Assembly (NCBI GenBank): GCA_963775955.1
Contig: CAVZKT010000003.1
Coordinates: 14,805-78,804 of the forward strand
Source: Candidatus Moraniibacteriota bacterium
GTDB taxonomy: Bacteria > Patescibacteriota > Minisyncoccia > Moranbacterales > UBA2206
Reading direction: 5' to 3'
DNA: 64,000 bases
Within the stretch, counting starts at the first letter, position 1. The number at the start of each line of letters is the position of its first letter. Shown piece by piece: positions 6,753-41,548 of this stretch. The position numbers were made by a program, and so were the translations under genes. The notes beneath the pieces were generated by a model. The model searched no databases and had not been told where the DNA came from. It saw only the letters and a list, made by a program, of their open reading frames with translations.

Positions 6753-7061
6753 ATGTTGGCTAAAAAACACAAAGTTGAAAGAAAAATAAAATCTCCAAAG
6801 CAAATGGAACGACATTTAAAGGGCATGGCCAATCATTATCGTATTGAAATATTGATGATTATCGATAAAGACAAGAACATCACTTTGGATGGAATAATTG
6901 AGAAAATTGGTGCCAACTCTAAGACGATCGGGGAGCACACGCGAAAACTCCATCAAGCAGGGCTGGTCAATAAGAGATACCGCGGCAAATTTGTGGAGCA
7001 TGCGCTATCCCCATATGGTAAAAAATTTGTCCGGTTTCTCAAATCATTCCAGCGCATATAA
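6753..7061 (+). CDS. ArsR/SmtB-family winged-helix transcriptional regulator
   Basis: 102 aa. LKGMANHYRIEILMII...ITLDGIIEKIGANSKTIGEHTRKLHQAGLVNKRYRGKFVEHALSPYG fits the ArsR-type HTH plus wing pattern. No obvious metal-binding Cys motif. Confidence 0.75.
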   Translation: MLAKKHKVERKIKSPKQMERHLKGMANHYRIEILMIIDKDKNITLDGIIEKIGANSKTIGEHTRKLHQAGLVNKRYRGKFVEHALSPYGKKFVRFLKSFQRI

Positions 7062-7095
7062 ATCATCCTTACAAACTGGAGTTTGTAAGGATGAT
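7062..7095. promoter_or_regulatory. Second copy of the same palindrome (15-bp arms)
   Basis: ATCATCCTTACAAAC-TGGA-GTTTGTAAGGATGAT starts 1 nt after the regulator's stop. It ends 17 nt before the TATAAT of the extended -10 TGTATAAT (7111-7118). Confidence 0.6.
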
Positions 7096-7146
7096 TTATC
7101 ATTGTGAAGTTGTATAATTAACGAAATAAATAACAGTTTTATATTT

Positions 7147-10114: not shown

Positions 10115-10375
10115 ATGGGTAAAAATATGTATTATCTCTATATTATTGAATGCGCTGATAAAACTTTGTACACCGGGATTACGACGGACTTGAAACGCCG
10201 GATTGCCGAACACAACAACACCAAGCTCGGCGCGAAATACACAACTTCCCGCCTGCCGGTGAAACTGGCATATTCAAAAAAATTTAAAAATCGGTCTCTG
10301 GCCTCGAAAGAAGAAGCCCGGATCAAAAAGTTAAAAAAACCTCAAAAATTAAAGATAATTCATCCGGGGGGATAA
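10115..10375 (+). CDS. GIY-YIG nuclease-domain protein (YhbQ/UPF0213-like)
   Basis: YYLYIIECADKTLYTGITTDLKRRIAEHN matches the GIY-(N10)-YIG core plus the R..EH helix. Confidence 0.85.
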   Translation: MGKNMYYLYIIECADKTLYTGITTDLKRRIAEHNNTKLGAKYTTSRLPVKLAYSKKFKNRSLASKEEARIKKLKKPQKLKIIHPGG

Positions 10376-10443
10376 GCGGACAATTAATTACCGCGATTAT
10401 TGAAACATGCCTCACTTCGTACCTATTAAACCAAGTCGAATAG

Positions 10444-10452
10444 TGCTATAAT
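10444..10452 (+). promoter_or_regulatory. Extended -10 promoter element
   Basis: TGCTATAAT. A transcript would start about 7 nt downstream, at the 5' arm of the element below. Confidence 0.5.
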
Positions 10453-10462
10453 AGCCTTATGA

Positions 10463-10586
10463 ACCCCGCACTAAACTTTCCGATGTAGAGCATAGGTTTG
10501 TGTTCGCGGGGAATTATTGAAATTATTAACATTTTCTGCTATTTTTCAAAATTATTTGAGAAGTATTCGGAAAGTTAGTGCGGGGT
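10463..10586 (+). repeat. Long-range inverted-repeat element, copy 1
   Basis: ACCCCGCACTAAACTTTCCGA (10463-10483) is complementary to TCGGAAAGTTAGTGCGGGGT (10567-10586, one bulge). The interior is 83 nt. The 3' arm contains GTG 10585. Confidence 0.85.
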
Positions 10587-11727
10587 GAAAATTGGAATCG
10601 ACGCCCGTTTTTACGGGCCTTTAGGCAAAGGGCTGGGGCGCTATACACAAAAATTGATAGAGAATCTGGAGAAAATTTCCGGTGCGGAGGCAAATCCTAA
10701 AAATCAATATTTTATCCTTCTTCGCAAAGAAAATTTTGCTGAATATCAGCCAGGAAGCCGGAATTTTCATAAGATTTTGGCTGATTTTCCTTGGTATACG
10801 TTTTCAGAGCAAATTCGCATGCCAAGACTGCTTAAAAAGCTCGAGCTTGACCTGGTTCATTTTCCCCACTTTAATGTGCCTCTTTTTTATTTTGGGAAAT
10901 TTATCGTTACTATTCATGATTTAATCCTGCTTCATTTTCCGACCGTAAAAAGCACGACACTTCCAGCTGTTTTTTATTGGCTGAAATTTTTTGCTTATAA
11001 AATTGTGATTAGCTCGGCTGTTCGCCGCGCAAAAAGCATAATTGCCGTGTCAAGATTCACCAAAGCTGACATCCTGAAAAATTATCGCCGGATTTCAGCC
11101 GAAAAAATAACCGTGACCTATGAAGCCTGCGATGATTATTGTTTTTTTAATCCAAGGCCGGCTGAAGAAATTCTTCCGCGGTATGGTATAATAAAACCAT
11201 ATCTGCTTTACGTGGGAAATGTATATCCCCACAAAAATCCAGAGAGGCTTGTTTTGGCGCTGAAGCAGTTGGAAAAACAAATCCCTGAGTTGCGGCTGGT
11301 TTTTGTCGGGGGAGAGGACTATTTTTACGCGCGCCTCAAGAAGTTTGTGAATTTGGAAAAAATCAACAATATTATTTTCGCCGGTTTTGTTCCAGATCAT
11401 GATCTTGATGTCGTTTTTAAAGAAGCAGTGGCTTACGTGCGGCCCTCGCTTTACGAAGGCTTTGAATTGCCGCCGCTTGAAGCAATGGCCAGGGGAGTTC
11501 CGGCAATATGTTCTGATCATAATTGTGCCCGCGAAATTTTGGAAAATAGTCCGGCATATTTTAATGGAAAAAATATTGAGGACATTTCACGTGTGATAAA
11601 AAATGTCTTTATGGACGCGAGTCTTCGCGAAAGTTTGATAAATAAAGGCTATATTCAATCTAAAAAATATAGCTGGCAAAAAATGGCGCAAGAGACGCTT
11701 ATGATTTACCAAAACGCAACAAAATGA
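10585..11727 (+). CDS. GT4 (group 1) glycosyltransferase
   Basis: GTG start giving (M)KIGIDARFYG. Motifs VGNVYPHKN, PSLYEGFELPPLEAMARGVPAICSD. Confidence 0.9.
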   Translation: MKIGIDARFYGPLGKGLGRYTQKLIENLEKISGAEANPKNQYFILLRKENFAEYQPGSRNFHKILADFPWYTFSEQIRMPRLLKKLELDLVHFPHFNVPLFYFGKFIVTIHDLILLHFPTVKSTTLPAVFYWLKFFAYKIVISSAVRRAKSIIAVSRFTKADILKNYRRISAEKITVTYEACDDYCFFNPRPAEEILPRYGIIKPYLLYVGNVYPHKNPERLVLALKQLEKQIPELRLVFVGGEDYFYARLKKFVNLEKINNIIFAGFVPDHDLDVVFKEAVAYVRPSLYEGFELPPLEAMARGVPAICSDHNCAREILENSPAYFNGKNIEDISRVIKNVFMDASLRESLINKGYIQSKKYSWQKMAQETLMIYQNATK

Positions 11728-16060: not shown

Positions 16061-16250
16061 TAGCAAAAACTATTGATATGTTTGGATTTCCATATGTGGA
16101 CATGTGGAAATGTTTTAATTTTATTGTTTGGTGGTCGTATCAATCTACATTATTATCTATGTAGATATCTCAGTAGATGTAATTCTTACACTTGGCCACA
16201 TATGGAAGCATTGCTTTGAAAGTAAAAAGGGGACTAACCGCCTGCTTTCC

Positions 16251-23755: not shown

Positions 23756-24341
23756 ATGAAAATGACAAAGATGTTGCTTGTAGTTTTATTTTCTCTCGCG
23801 CTTTTTGTTGCATGCGGTGGGGGAGGAGGGAGACAGTTCCGTAACTGTTAACCCTGTTAATCCGTCGACACCCGAGCCTACGCCTACGCCGGCGACAACA
23901 ACCACCCCTGGAACAATAACCCTCAGCACACCCTTAAATGGGTTGACGCCACTGACATTTAGTTCGGCGCTCCTGCAGAATCACATTGTAATGGAACCCG
24001 ACAAAGTTGTTGGGCTAATGAACGAAGCTGTGCAAATCGGCATCGTTCAGGAAGTTTGCTGGGAGGGGTTTTTGGCAAAATGGTCAGATCCGGATCATGG
24101 AAAATTTCAAAAAAATTATTGCACCACCAATGTAAGCTCAGGCGATAATTTTCAGGGGATGATTCTGATACCACAGTGTGATGCGGGAAACCTAGTAGCA
24201 TATCTGACCTCAACAATAAACAACGGAGAAACATCCTGGTTCAACATCTGGGACTGGGAGGTCCCGGCAGGATCCACTAAAAATCTGGAGCAGGGATGGA
24301 TAATTACCTGCATAAATAACTTGCCCCCTGGTGCGCATTAA
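23756..24341 (+). CDS. Lipoprotein with Pro/Thr linker and Cys-rich domain, one frameshift after the lipobox
   Basis: GGAGG lies 7 nt upstream. The signal peptide and lipobox MKMTKMLLVVLFSLALFVAC-GGG are in one frame. The mature part DSSVTVNPVNPSTPEPTPTPATTTTPG is in the frame of 23805. The switch is in the G-rich run at about 23815-23832. Confidence 0.7.
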
Positions 24342-38946: not shown

Positions 38947-39813
38947 ATGCGTATAAAAAAGGCCATTTTGCCTGTGGCTGGATTTGGCACCAGATTCCTG
39001 CCAGCAACAAAATCCCAGCCTAAAGAGATGCTTCCGGTTGTAGACAAACCGGTTATCCAATATCTCGTGGAAGAAGCAGTCGCATCCGGCATTGAAGAGA
39101 TAATTTTTGTAACTGGACGCGGCAAAAGAGCTATTGAAGATCATTTTGACGTCTCTTATGAGCTGGAAGAAACTTTGGTGGAAAAAAATAGGCACGATCT
39201 TTTAAAAGAAGTGCAAAAAATTCCCGGGCTGGCCAAATTTTCATACGTTCGCCAGCCCATGCCCCTTGGAGACGGGCATGCTATCTTGCAAGCAAAACAT
39301 CTCATTGGAAACGAACCGGTTTTGATAATTTTTGGTGATTGCATATATGACAGTAAAGTCCCGGCAGCAAGACAGCTAATTGATGTGTACGAAAAATATG
39401 GCGATTCAGTCATTGGCATGAGCCAGGTTGCCAGGGACGAAGTCTCAAAATTCGGAGTCCTTGAGGGCATCAATCTGGGAGACGGCGTTTACGAAATTAA
39501 GGGAATCACAGAAAAGCCAACACCAGGAGAAGCTAAATCAAATTTAGTTGCCGTCGGAAAATATGTGATAACGCCTGAAGTAATGGAAACCCTGGCAACC
39601 ATGAAAAGCGGAAAATCGGGTGAAATTCGCCTGGCCGACGCTTTTAATATAATGCTTGAAAATAATCGGCCATTGTATGGAAAAGAGCTGGAAGGCGAGT
39701 GGTTGGATACTGGAGATAAATTTAACTTTATAAAAGCCACTATAAAAATAGGGCTTAAGCATCCGGAAGTGGGCGAGAATTTAAAAAAATTTCTTAAAGA
39801 ACTGAATAAATGA
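38947..39813 (+). CDS. galU: UTP--glucose-1-phosphate uridylyltransferase
   Basis: Motifs KAILPVAGFGTRFLPATKSQPKEMLPVVDKPVIQYLVEEA, GRGKRAIEDHFD, VRQPMPLGDGHAI. Confidence 0.9.
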   Translation: MRIKKAILPVAGFGTRFLPATKSQPKEMLPVVDKPVIQYLVEEAVASGIEEIIFVTGRGKRAIEDHFDVSYELEETLVEKNRHDLLKEVQKIPGLAKFSYVRQPMPLGDGHAILQAKHLIGNEPVLIIFGDCIYDSKVPAARQLIDVYEKYGDSVIGMSQVARDEVSKFGVLEGINLGDGVYEIKGITEKPTPGEAKSNLVAVGKYVITPEVMETLATMKSGKSGEIRLADAFNIMLENNRPLYGKELEGEWLDTGDKFNFIKATIKIGLKHPEVGENLKKFLKELNK

Positions 39814-39914
39814 ACCCCGTTAGAGTTTTAATATAAGTAATGGGGGATTATATAATAATATTTTTTAAGTTTTCGCTATTGGTAGAGTTCAATGGCGCAA
39901 AACTCTAACGGGGT
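39814..39914 (+). repeat. Long-range inverted-repeat element, copy 3
   Basis: ACCCCGTTAGAGTTTT (39814-39829) / AAAACTCTAACGGGGT (39899-39914). The arms are 16/16 identical to copy 2 while the interior differs. Confidence 0.9.
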
Positions 39915-41034
39915 GAAAATTGCGATTCAAGCGGCGGATTTGGACCATGACAGAATAGACGGCACCCGGGTTTATATTTTAAATTGTCTGAAATATTTCG
40001 GCGAACTGGATCCGGCCAGTGAATTTTTGATTTACCACAAAAAGGAATTCAATCCCGAATTGGCGCCGCCCAATTTTTCGAATTATAAAATTAAAAAAAT
40101 TTACGCCCCGCTTTTTTGGACGCAGACCAGATTTGCCTGGGAAATCAGGAAAGACAAGCCGGATATATTATGGATGCCGATGCACAACGCGCCGCTGCTT
40201 TGCCCGAAAAAAATAAAAACAATCGTGACTATCCACGATCTGGCGTTCAAATATTTTCCCGAACATTTTCCTAAAAAGGATTTACTGAAAATCAACCTGC
40301 TCACCCGCCTTGCCATCAGGAATGCCGACGGCATAATTGCGATTTCCGAATCTTCCAAAAAAGACATTCTTAAATTTTATCCCGGGACGCGAGCCGAAAA
40401 AATCAAAGTTATTTACCATGGATTTGATTCGGAGGTTTATGAACAAGAGCGAGATTTGGCCAAAGAAAAGGAGATTAAGGAAAGACTGGGAATACGGGGT
40501 GATTATTTGCTTTATATTGGGGCAATTCAGCCGCGCAAAAACCTGGAGGTTTTTATCGAAGCCTTTAATTTAATTAGAACCAGACAAAAAAGCAATTTAA
40601 GCCTGGTTTTTGTTGGAGAAAAAGCCTGGTTGAGCAAAAATACCCTAAAAAAAGCTACTTTTAGCCCCTTTAGTCAGGACATTAAGATGCCCGGAAGGGT
40701 CAAATTTTGCGATTTGGGACATCTTTGCCGGGGAGCCAGAATATTCGTCTTCCCGTCTCTTTATGAGGGTTTTGGCATACCACCATTGGAAGCTATGGCG
40801 GCGAAAGTCCCGGTAATTCTGGCCAATAATTCCAGTCCTCCCGGAAGTGGGCGGCGAGCGCTGCGCTATATTTTGAAGTCCGGCAAAACCCGAAGGATTT
40901 GGCGCAAAAAATTGAAATAAGTTTTGGGAAACGAAAATTTGCGCGCCGCGATGATTGCTAGAGGCTTAGAGCAAATTAAAAAATTTTCCTGGGAAAAATG
41001 CGCCCGGGAAACACTGGACTATTTAAAGAAGTAA
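39913..41034 (+). CDS. GT4 (group 1) glycosyltransferase, three clustered frameshifts near the 3' end
   Basis: GTG 39913 gives (M)KIAIQAADL. Motifs IGAIQPRKN, PSLYEGFGIPPLEAMAAKVPVILANNSS. The reading then passes through LPEVGGE / AALYFEVRQNPKDLAQKIEI / VLGNENLRAAMIARGLEQIKKFSWEKCARETLDYLKK in three successive frames (about 40845-40925). Confidence 0.8.
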
Positions 41035-41136
41035 CCCCGTTAGAAAAATGACTAAGCCCGCAACCGCATTGTGAATATTTTTGTTTTTTGTAATTATAGT
41101 TTCCTATAAATTATTTTGTCATTTTCTAACGGGGTT
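41033..41136. repeat. Long-range inverted-repeat element, copy 4
   Basis: AACCCCGTTAGAAAAATGAC (41033-41052) / GTCATTTTCTAACGGGGTT (41118-41136), with one bulge. Lies between convergent genes. Confidence 0.85.
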
Positions 41137-41548
41137 AACTATTCTTGTCCGGCAAAGCGAAAGTTTTATAGAAAAATAAAATGATGGCAAAAACTGCCAG
41201 CGAGAAAATGGCGGTTTCGATAAGTCCCAGGCTGCGCAGGGAATTGATAATTAAAAGAAGCGATATTGAAAGCAAAAGAAGCATCGTTTTATTTTTGAAA
41301 ATATTTTTTTCGCTATACGTTTCAAAATTAATATCATTTTTTCTCCCAAACCAGACAATCAAAAATAAAATAGCAAAAAGAACCAGAATTATTTTAGTAA
41401 AACTAAGATGGGCTGAAAAAAATCCGGGCACCAGGCTTTCCAGGACAAGCAGTCCGGCAAATACAAAAATCCACAAAAACAGGATGTCGTTTAGTAATTT
41501 ATACAGCAATAACTTCAGTTGTTTTTTATTATTAGGTTGCATAACCAT
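41135..41548 (-). CDS. Small 4-TM membrane protein, unknown function
   Basis: 137-aa hydrophobic ORF, coupled to the upstream gene by overlap. Confidence 0.55.
   Translation of the reverse strand: MVMQPNNKKQLKLLLYKLLNDILFLWIFVFAGLLVLESLVPGFFSAHLSFTKIILVLFAILFLIVWFGRKNDINFETYSEKNIFKNKTMLLLLSISLLLIINSLRSLGLIETAIFSLAVFAIILFFYKTFALPDKNS

Follow-up and report, generated by a model that had tools for sequence, protein, structure and literature searches.

What places the start codon of a glycosyltransferase gene inside a long inverted repeat, and does this repeat act as a regulatory RNA? The question is raised by a GT4 glycosyltransferase (GT) gene at 10585-11727 in a stretch of 64,000 nucleotides from a Candidatus Moraniibacteriota bacterium (contig CAVZKT010000003.1, positions 14,805 to 78,804), which we call the window. 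An earlier note, made from the sequence letters alone, described a promoter followed by two complementary arms, the second overlapping the GTG start of the gene, and took the arrangement for a switch-like leader RNA linked to GT genes. We find that positions 10464-10585 are very probably a copy of a mobile inverted-repeat element without open reading frame (ORF), similar to a MITE (a miniature transposable element with inverted repeats), which landed on the start codon.

We first observed that the statements of the note on the sequence of this copy (c1, 10464..10585, 122 nt) are all correct on direct reading. The native promoter of the GT4 gene, the extended -10 TGCTATAAT, lies on the forward strand at 10444..10452 and is invariant in the window and in the related contigs L001 and L228. 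After 6 nt comes an old ATG (10459-10461), which opens a forward ORF of 9 codons (10459..10488, MNPALNFPM and a stop) across the whole 5' arm. The 5' arm, (A)CCCCGCACTAAACTTTCCGA, occupies 10463/4-10483, and the 3' arm, TCGGAAAGTTAGTGCGGGG(T), occupies 10567-10585/6, with one bulged A. Sequence reading and the arm scan place the 5' copy of a target-site duplication, TGAA, at 10460..10463, and its 3' copy is at 10586-10589. The new forward start (10585..10589) is made of the last G of the element and the TG of this 3' TGAA.

The window contains four copies of the element, of 100-122 nt, with long-range inverted arms CCCCG...CGGGG, and three of them sit exactly on GT4 start codons. A relaxed arm scan of the window recovers c1 to c4 only. 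The second copy (c2, 30098..30197) is flanked by TGAA at 30094-30097 and 30198-30201; the upstream Wzy-like ORF now terminates within its 5' arm, and its GT gene has a GTG start at 30197. The third (c3, 39815..39913) has TGAA at 39811-39814 and 39914-39917; the 5' TGA is still the stop codon of the upstream NTP-transferase gene, and the GT gene starts with GTG at 39913. Both carry the arm CCCCGTTAGAGTTTT, unlike that of c1, in the same layout, so that the recurrence noted at 30097-30198 and 39814-39914 is present, with 0 such matches expected by chance. The fourth copy (c4, 41035..41134, flanks GTAA and TTAA, arm CCCCGTTAGAAAA(A)TGAC) sits between the TAA stop of a forward-strand GT gene (41032-41034) and the TTA, that is the TAA stop, of a convergent reverse-strand gene (41135-41137), and therefore cannot be a 5' leader.

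In c1, c2 and c3 the junctions read ATGAA/CCCCG...CGGGG/TGAA, with the direct repeat TGAA on both sides. A short direct repeat around inverted ends is the hallmark of transposable elements. Removing the element and one TGAA in silico gives ATGAAAAT/ATGAAGAT, with an ATG start and an unchanged N-terminus; the three restored sites are ATGAAAATTGG, ATGAAGATTTT and ATGAAAATTGC, all with ATG starts and the same M-K-I N-termini. None of the four copies has coding capacity or a GIY-YIG ORF. Their sole reading frames are the run-on ORFs of 8-9 codons made by the junction, from the old ATG through the 5' arm (MNPALNFPM, MNPVRVLA and MNPVRVLI, each followed by a stop).

Judged by how its GT4 homologues are named, the organism belongs to the Patescibacteria and is of Moranbacteria type. 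The sites were then compared with those of relatives, namely contigs encoding close homologues of the three GT proteins, and L228, a more distant metagenome contig. The c1 site is empty in L001 (81% amino acid identity), which reads ...AATAGTGCTATAATAGCCTTATGAAAATAGGG..., with CCTTATGAAAATAGGG in the region of the old start. The alignment of L001 with the window is continuous save for a gap of 126 nt, corresponding to the element and one TGAA. In L228 the c1 site is filled. The c2 site is empty in L124 (84%) and occupied by a divergent copy in L125 (82%). At the c3 start, empty sites are found in L127 (AAATGAAAATTGC, 84%) and L128 (TAATGAAAATCGC, 81%), and the same two contigs lack c4, the convergent genes abutting at the stop in L127 and lying 19 nt apart in L128. 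Both c3 and c4 are present in L126, a 99.4% identical strain. The GT genes adjoining filled sites are intact, with ratios of nonsynonymous to synonymous substitution rates (dN/dS) of 0.10-0.18, and the gene at 10585-11727 is under purifying selection (0.10-0.13). Since the sites are empty in near relatives with intact genes, all four window copies are insertions relative to these relatives.

The copies do not follow the descent of their sites. The c2 copy of the window is 96% identical over 100 nt to an L125 copy at another site, the start codon of the next GT gene (ATGAA/.../TGAAAATAGCG), whereas its identity to the L125 copy occupying the orthologous site is only about 60% (about 50% in the interior). 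As for c1, the window and L228 copies are 88% identical, with dS of the adjacent gene saturated at 2.4, while the closer relative L001 (dS 1.16) is empty. Co-converted flanks were not seen between the window and L228, since similarity over the first 30 codons is the same for each of the three pairs. This pattern fits repeated gain at preferred sites, loss and horizontal spread, and not an ancient neutrally evolving leader. The family has been active in recent times, because sites are empty in close relatives, near-identical copies occupy different sites and the same site was hit by different members. At the window GT start corresponding to the filled site of that next GT gene (31448, region 31440-31455) there is no element, and the sequence reads AAAGTGAAAATAGCG, the ATG version with one extra G. 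Speculatively, this G may be a 1-nt excision footprint.

Other genomes, which the earlier note proposed to scan, do yield homologues, in large number, when searched with two end patterns of 20 bases each. With one genome per species, the exact pattern ACCCCGTTAG-N60-90-CTAACGGGGT finds at least 119 loci, in hosts including many classes of Patescibacteria, Omnitrophota, Desulfobacterota, Planctomycetota, Nitrospirota, Gammaproteobacteria, KSB1 and others. Copies with c1-type ends (ACCCCGCACT...AGTGCGGGGT) add at least 120 metagenome loci, and viral contigs scanned for the element gave 0 matches. Flank and covariation statistics were computed on the distinct copies among the matches listed, 139 for the CCCCGTTAG subfamily and 114 for the CCCCGCACT subfamily, to which c1 belongs. 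Identical 4-bp flanks occur in 89 of the 139 (permuted mean 16.8, maximum 29) and in 31 of the 114 (permuted mean 5.1).

The target is mostly TNNA, the first base of the 5' flank being T in 118/127 cases and the last base of the 3' flank A in 119/127. Perfect duplications of other sequence exist (TATG, CGAG and CTAA), from which it follows that the duplication comprises all four bases and that CCCCG...CGGGG are the true limits of the element. On the same three cases we rejected a 2-bp duplication with A...T termini, although the flanks of c4 (GTAA/TTAA) fit 2 bp better than 4 bp. Frequent flanks are a stop codon with a following A (TAA, TGA or TAG, or the complements), an ATGA start or the TTGA of a TTGACA -35 box, with TTGA on both sides in 19 c1-type copies. 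Considering 254 element ends, a GTG start with a long ORF is made at 24, and a stop codon lies inside the duplication at no fewer than 16. Both orientations occur, and copies are found at stop codons, in -35 boxes, in the gap between convergent genes, in pilin leader sequences and next to or inside ribosomal RNA (rRNA) genes.

Members range from 29 to about 160 nt and begin with CCCCG, with inverted arms of 13-20 bp; tandem and nested copies occur, and the interiors are unrelated between copies and not alignable. Next to them lie housekeeping genes of unrelated kinds (PilB-type ATPases, ABC ATPases, DnaX and others), not glycosyltransferases, and the GT linkage of the window copies simply reflects a window that is a GT-rich cluster. 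The copies c1 to c4 combine the characters of a MITE, that is, short non-coding sequence, terminal inverted repeats, a duplication of fixed length, several copies per genome (four in 64 kb) and presence/absence polymorphism. The family is very large and appears to be undescribed, and our literature search found no paper on its end sequences or on MITEs in Patescibacteria.

These data show how the GTG start came about. The c1 element inserted at the TGAA inside ATGAAAAT, at the start of the GT4 gene, duplicating 4 bp of a preferred TNNA target. As the element ends in ...CGGGG, the 3' junction G-TGAA creates an in-frame GTG start in place of the old ATG. The 5' junction retains ATGAA, and at c3 the TGA stop of the upstream gene, so that both neighbouring genes stay unbroken. 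Copies c2 to c4 arose in the same way, and the elements would be mobilised in trans. Being harmless to their neighbours, insertions accumulate on the start codons, stop codons and -35 boxes of compact genomes.

The reading of the earlier note was a dedicated cis-regulatory leader RNA, a translational switch on GT genes in which one of two helices excludes the other (the 5' arm pairing with the 3' arm, or the 5' ACCCCG with an internal G-run box), kept by selection on pairing. Part of the evidence does point this way. The folds are very stable and enclose the start codon: the predicted RNA fold of c1 has -57.2 kcal/mol (z = -8.7 against shuffles), two further GT-linked copies have -39.4 and -36.3 kcal/mol (z = -5.7 and -5.1), and each of the four copies is much more stable than its shuffles, with z from -5.1 to -8.7. 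The helix is real, and it would contain the GTG in any transcript from the conserved promoter TGCTATAAT. The G-run box (10506-10516 in c1, where it resembles a third arm) and the TTTTC..CTATT box are present, and the former is enriched in the family, recurring in 49/135 copies against 10 in shuffles. As the note stated, GGAGG stands before the genes at 23756, 26685 and 27658, and none of the three GTG starts has it. Furthermore, a short ORF covers the 5' arm, as in leader-peptide attenuators, and one compensated pair distinguishes c2 of the window from its L125 counterpart.

The arms also covary across a large family, as the earlier note had held from three copies; the selection on RNA pairing that it drew from this is not supported. 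The first 10 arm positions are constant, 9 of them being fixed by the search pattern. Of the 139 copies in the CCCCGTTAG subfamily, 130 have position 11 paired, 119 position 12 and 104 position 13, with all four Watson-Crick pairs in use, and at position 14 pairing falls to the random level (37/139). In the CCCCGCACT subfamily, positions 10-15 covary, again with all four pairs, and pairing then fades. G.T makes up 16/64 of the non-Watson-Crick cells at positions 11-13, that is, it enjoys no special tolerance, and the L125 copy at the c2 site carries two uncompensated G-to-A changes, giving A.C mismatches. A sharp edge at 13 bp with a constant outer part is expected of ends, or of a hairpin, read by one enzyme, and not expected of an RNA helix whose role is to cover a start codon. 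The sharp helix end and the unfavoured G.T fit recognition of DNA ends equally well as RNA pairing. The 13-bp arms may then be the substrate of the enzyme, as two ends or as an extruded hairpin.

The distribution of the element weighs further against a leader RNA. The sites of the closest relatives are empty with intact genes, target duplications are present, c4 and many other members are upstream of no gene, both orientations are used, and no GT association exists outside the GT-rich cluster of the window. A riboswitch would keep a fixed position in the 5' untranslated region near related genes; here orthologous sites in close relatives are empty, and copies lie at stops, in convergent gaps and in -35 boxes. 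A conserved core beyond one closing helix is likewise missing, as interiors are unconserved and only the G-run box recurs, in about a third of the copies. The note did not recognise a named RNA family, and indeed no relevant match exists in Rfam 15 at the gathering score or at E<=1, where the element matches only chance hairpins of eukaryotic microRNA models. Moreover, both the upstream ORF and the GTG arise automatically from insertion at ATGAA. A GT-linked riboswitch- or attenuator-like switch is not supported, given the insertion polymorphisms with target duplications and a spread over many phyla, in either orientation and next to genes of unrelated function. As an account of where the element came from it is largely refuted, and we consider it very unlikely.

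Two other RNA- or promoter-based ideas were tried. Outward promoters inside the element were rejected, with consensus matches in c1 and c3 at non-equivalent positions and none in c2. Translational bypassing of the T4 gene 60 type, or an RNA intron between ATGAA and GTGAA, found no support, and the empty sites explain the repeat.

Under the insertion reading, effects on translation are plausible as side-effects. Judging from the spacing of TGCTATAAT, the c1 transcript probably starts at or beside the old ATG, and the ancestral GT4 mRNA was probably leaderless. The arms in the mRNA would bury the new GTG. Ribosomes on the 9-codon ORF of c1, or on the upstream genes ending at or inside the 5' arm (c3 and c2, respectively), would melt the helix and free the GTG, which would explain continued GT expression; that these genes are still expressed is suggested by their intactness and their dN/dS. 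The layout resembles ermC-type attenuators and other long-range helices sequestering a ribosome binding site, where the start codon is in a helix and a short ORF covers the 5' strand. Unlike these, the arrangement is automatic from insertion, is unconserved at orthologous sites and shows no sign of sensing.

The insertions also disturb annotation. For the second GT gene (start at 30197 in our reading) the public gene call uses a downstream ATG and gives 382 amino acids, and for the third it uses an ATG inside the element (39892), adding the extension MAQNSNG. In this third GT4 gene (39913-41034), read-through needs about three frameshifts within 120 nt (40820-40940); the 99.4% identical contig L126 is in frame there but lacks 1 nt elsewhere, near 40618. 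Errors of assembly or consensus are the probable cause, and because the frameshifts differ between the two assemblies we do not claim a pseudogene.

Other bacterial MITEs are the closest comparison. Correia/NEMIS elements of Neisseria and ERIC/IRU elements of enterobacteria are MITEs of about 100-150 bp that act at the RNA level, and their mobilising enzyme is unknown. Like our family, they have no ORF, carry terminal inverted repeats, make a short duplication that joins functional signals and lie beside gene starts and ends; they also form, as our family may do, co-transcribed long hairpins able to alter mRNA processing and translation. In contrast to them, our family has other end sequences, a 4-bp TNNA duplication (theirs is TA) and 13-bp arms, spans many phyla instead of one genus or family, and has longer relatives that carry GIY-YIG genes.

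A domesticated hairpin repeat of REP/REPIN type, vertically inherited and serving as a terminator, mRNA stabiliser or nucleoid-protein site, was also considered. To our knowledge REPINs make no target duplication, whereas duplications are present here. REPIN-RAYT systems (PMC3116915) do come to mind from the hairpin shape, from the siting of copies at gene ends and, for c4, between convergent genes, and from a small nuclease-type gene with these repeats on either side; both comprise dispersed hairpin repeats of about 100 nt. Unlike REPIN-RAYT, with HUH/Y1 enzymes and vertical inheritance within a lineage, our family has no Y1/HUH gene, and its associated gene is GIY-YIG. Horizontal spread is indicated by identical arm sequences in many phyla, and site presence or absence does not track host relatedness. 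This origin is extremely improbable.

Three further identities were rejected. Integron attC sites (RYYYAAC ... GTTRRRY) have the opposite polarity, the arms reading directly as GTTAGA in 5' and TCTAAC in 3'. The ends of Tn3 elements read GGGG from outside inwards, and ours read CCCC in that direction, which excludes Tn3-derived TIMEs. For PATEs of IS200/IS605, the TTAC often found after the element, which gives an IS608-type look, consists of reverse-complement stops (GTAA) and of pilin G-F-T codons, and duplications are present.

A candidate for the mobilising agent comes from longer relatives. In 249 loci including the window (1.67 Mb), we found 12 ORFs with the GIY-YIG domain PF01541, forming two subgroups. 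One is arm-less and consists of the window gene and two others. The other has nine ORFs, 8 of them flanked by inverted arms or element hairpins. The relatives that have the same arms as the element and bear a GIY-YIG gene measure 289-388 nt and encode a UPF0213-type nuclease of ~85 amino acids, some with the same 4-bp duplication. The clearest is in L141 (289 nt), with the layout TTGA/CCCCGCACTAACTTTCGCT-8 nt-ATG...84 codons...AGCGAAAGTTAGTGCGGGG/TTGA and the stop codon inside the 3' arm; an ORF-less copy of 116 nt lies 1.3 kb away, the first 17 nt of each arm being identical. Locus L089 has 304 nt and arms CCCCGCACCTAT, L089b has 298 nt, different arms and a perfect TTGA duplication, and L006 has 388 nt and arms CCCCGTTAGAGATA, with 13 nt in common with an ORF-less copy on the same contig. 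In L223 (1650-3472) a GIY-YIG hairpin element of 313 nt with arms ATGCCACACCAAT has split a 16S rRNA gene close to model position 65. Upstream of this interrupted gene, a TTGACA box holds a c1-type copy that has no ORF.

Loci L042 and L229 begin with a complete copy free of any ORF, after which come a GIY-YIG gene and one more right arm, a three-arm layout that explains the internal G-run box as a degenerate third arm. The nearest solved structures for the arm-flanked proteins are the UPF0213 proteins 1ZG2 and 1YWL, then SLX1 and I-TevI.

The link between GIY-YIG and the element family is circumstantial but specific. The ~85 amino acid UPF0213-type nuclease, acting in trans, is our first, though tentative, candidate for the mobilising agent. 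Still more tentatively, the family may be an unrecognised class of bacterial transposable elements whose sole protein is this nuclease, recognising the 13-bp arms and cutting TNNA, with the ORF-less hairpins as non-autonomous riders. In such a scheme the arms would be recognised as paired ends or as an extruded hairpin or cruciform, and cuts at TNNA would give both the 4-bp duplications and seamless excision. I-TevI offers a parallel, as it cuts a motif with fixed outer and free inner bases (CNNNG). The arm-flanked genes share with GIY-YIG homing genes (I-TevI, PDB 1MK0) and with UPF0213 proteins (PDB 1ZG2 and 1YWL) the PF01541 domain, a sporadic distribution and the same site in different hosts. 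They differ in being only ~85 amino acids long without an evident DNA-binding domain, in lacking any intron or intein, in the inverted repeats and target duplication around the gene, and in being far outnumbered by ORF-less copies.

The main alternative to a GIY-YIG enzyme is an ordinary MITE moved by an unseen DDE transposase of IS1380/piggyBac type, the arm-enclosed GIY-YIG genes being passenger homing genes that invaded a multicopy element. IS1380 elements have CC ends and 4-5 bp duplications, and our family resembles them in both. The duplication has T first and A last (TTAA in piggyBac), the CC(CC) termini recall the CCC...GGG of piggyBac, and the empty sites are unbroken (ATGAAAAT), so that loss looks seamless. 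IS1380 has been used as the prokaryotic outgroup of piggyBac (PMC10813416). GIY-YIG genes also occur without arms and with unrelated arms, fitting independent mobility. On the other hand, two central target bases are free, the elements measure 0.03-0.4 kb against 1.5-2.5 kb, and no DDE gene lies between such arms or recurs nearby in about 1.7 Mb of flanks, whole genomes being unsearched. Almost the whole interval from arm to arm is taken up by the GIY-YIG ORF, that of L141 ending inside the 3' arm, and both L141 and L089b carry perfect 4-bp duplications. We consider a DDE transposase rather unlikely.

Several observations weigh against our preferred reading of a mobile element, or against the GIY-YIG nuclease as its mover. 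A perfect duplication is absent in about a third of the CCCCGTTAG copies and in most CCCCGCACT copies. The c1 arms of the window and L228 are identical at 41/41 positions, 100% conserved though neutral sites are saturated, which could also reflect selection on the helix and counts in favour of a leader RNA. No autonomous partner or transposase was found in the window or recurrently in the 8-kb flanks. We know of no GIY-YIG enzyme that acts as a transposase, and the 85 amino acid protein shows no obvious domain for DNA binding; alternatively, it could be a homing nuclease that parasitises the elements. The window GIY-YIG gene belongs to the arm-less subgroup, and L228 has c1 but no GIY-YIG gene nearby.

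The searches for other enzymes were negative within their scope. The ORF clusters of the flanks gave only housekeeping families, with no DDE, HUH, serine or tyrosine enzyme, and a scan for arm pairs 0.5-5 kb apart gave nothing useful. Plasmid and phage collections contain no homologue of the arm-flanked GIY-YIG protein, and the literature search returned no paper linking GIY-YIG with inverted-repeat elements or REP-like repeats.

The GIY-YIG gene of the window (10115..10375, forward strand, 86 amino acids) lies 88 nt upstream of c1, has no arms and is a separate, free-standing insertion, of a different subgroup from the arm-flanked ORFs. It occupies the place of SpoIIM, which is intact in L001 and L228. 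Of SpoIIM only the last ~50 nt remain (about 10392-10443), and its TAG stop overlaps the promoter of the GT4 gene. This looks like a free-standing mobile nuclease gene that came together with a deletion.

Some loci of the family deserve mention on their own. In L100 (640-747 and 48-92), L012 and L051, the right arm ..TCTCTAACGGGG/TTTACC encodes ..S-L-T-G/F-T.., a prepilin cleavage motif, and type IV pilin-like genes receive from the element their ribosome binding site, start codon and entire leader peptide (MEAIMKQFRKRSLTG/FT..). In L010 (2046-5155), two copies lie within the ~325-bp arms of a large inverted repeat around a gene for a secreted protein of 686 amino acids, which may be a composite or invertible segment. 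In the relative L002 (1463-2911), a diversity-generating retroelement, with a reverse transcriptase (PF00078) and a bAvd gene, comes before the orthologous GT4 gene, whose leader has a different 13-bp hairpin (ACGAAGTACGAAA..).

Elsewhere in the window, two near-perfect palindromes (7058-7099 and 36062-36129) share the core ATCATCCTTA..TAAGGATGAT; this other repeated hairpin is unrelated to the element and may be a terminator or belong to a further small repeat family. An inverted repeat at 16088-16207, with 22-nt arms TTCCATATGTGGACATGTGGAA and TTACACTTGGCCACATATGGAA placed 76 nt apart, has no CCCCG ends and is outside the element family. The sole Rfam match in the window is a bacterial RNase P RNA of class A (2339-2768, 166 bits).

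As a caution for similar studies, covariation of arms alone cannot tell a structured RNA from transposon ends. In Patescibacteria and several further phyla the elements also matter for annotation: ATG starts become GTG, residues are added or replaced at N- and C-termini, and gene callers are misled. If the GIY-YIG link is true, the family would be a minimal transposon with a new class of mobilising enzyme, a sixth catalytic type among known transposases, and it would give a function to UPF0213/COG2827, a widespread family of unknown function, with a possible use as a very small tool for DNA insertion. Finally, start codons, stop codons and -35 boxes are rebuilt through the combination of end sequence and target preference, and these rebuilt signals show how a parasite can hold out in genomes that have hardly any intergenic space.

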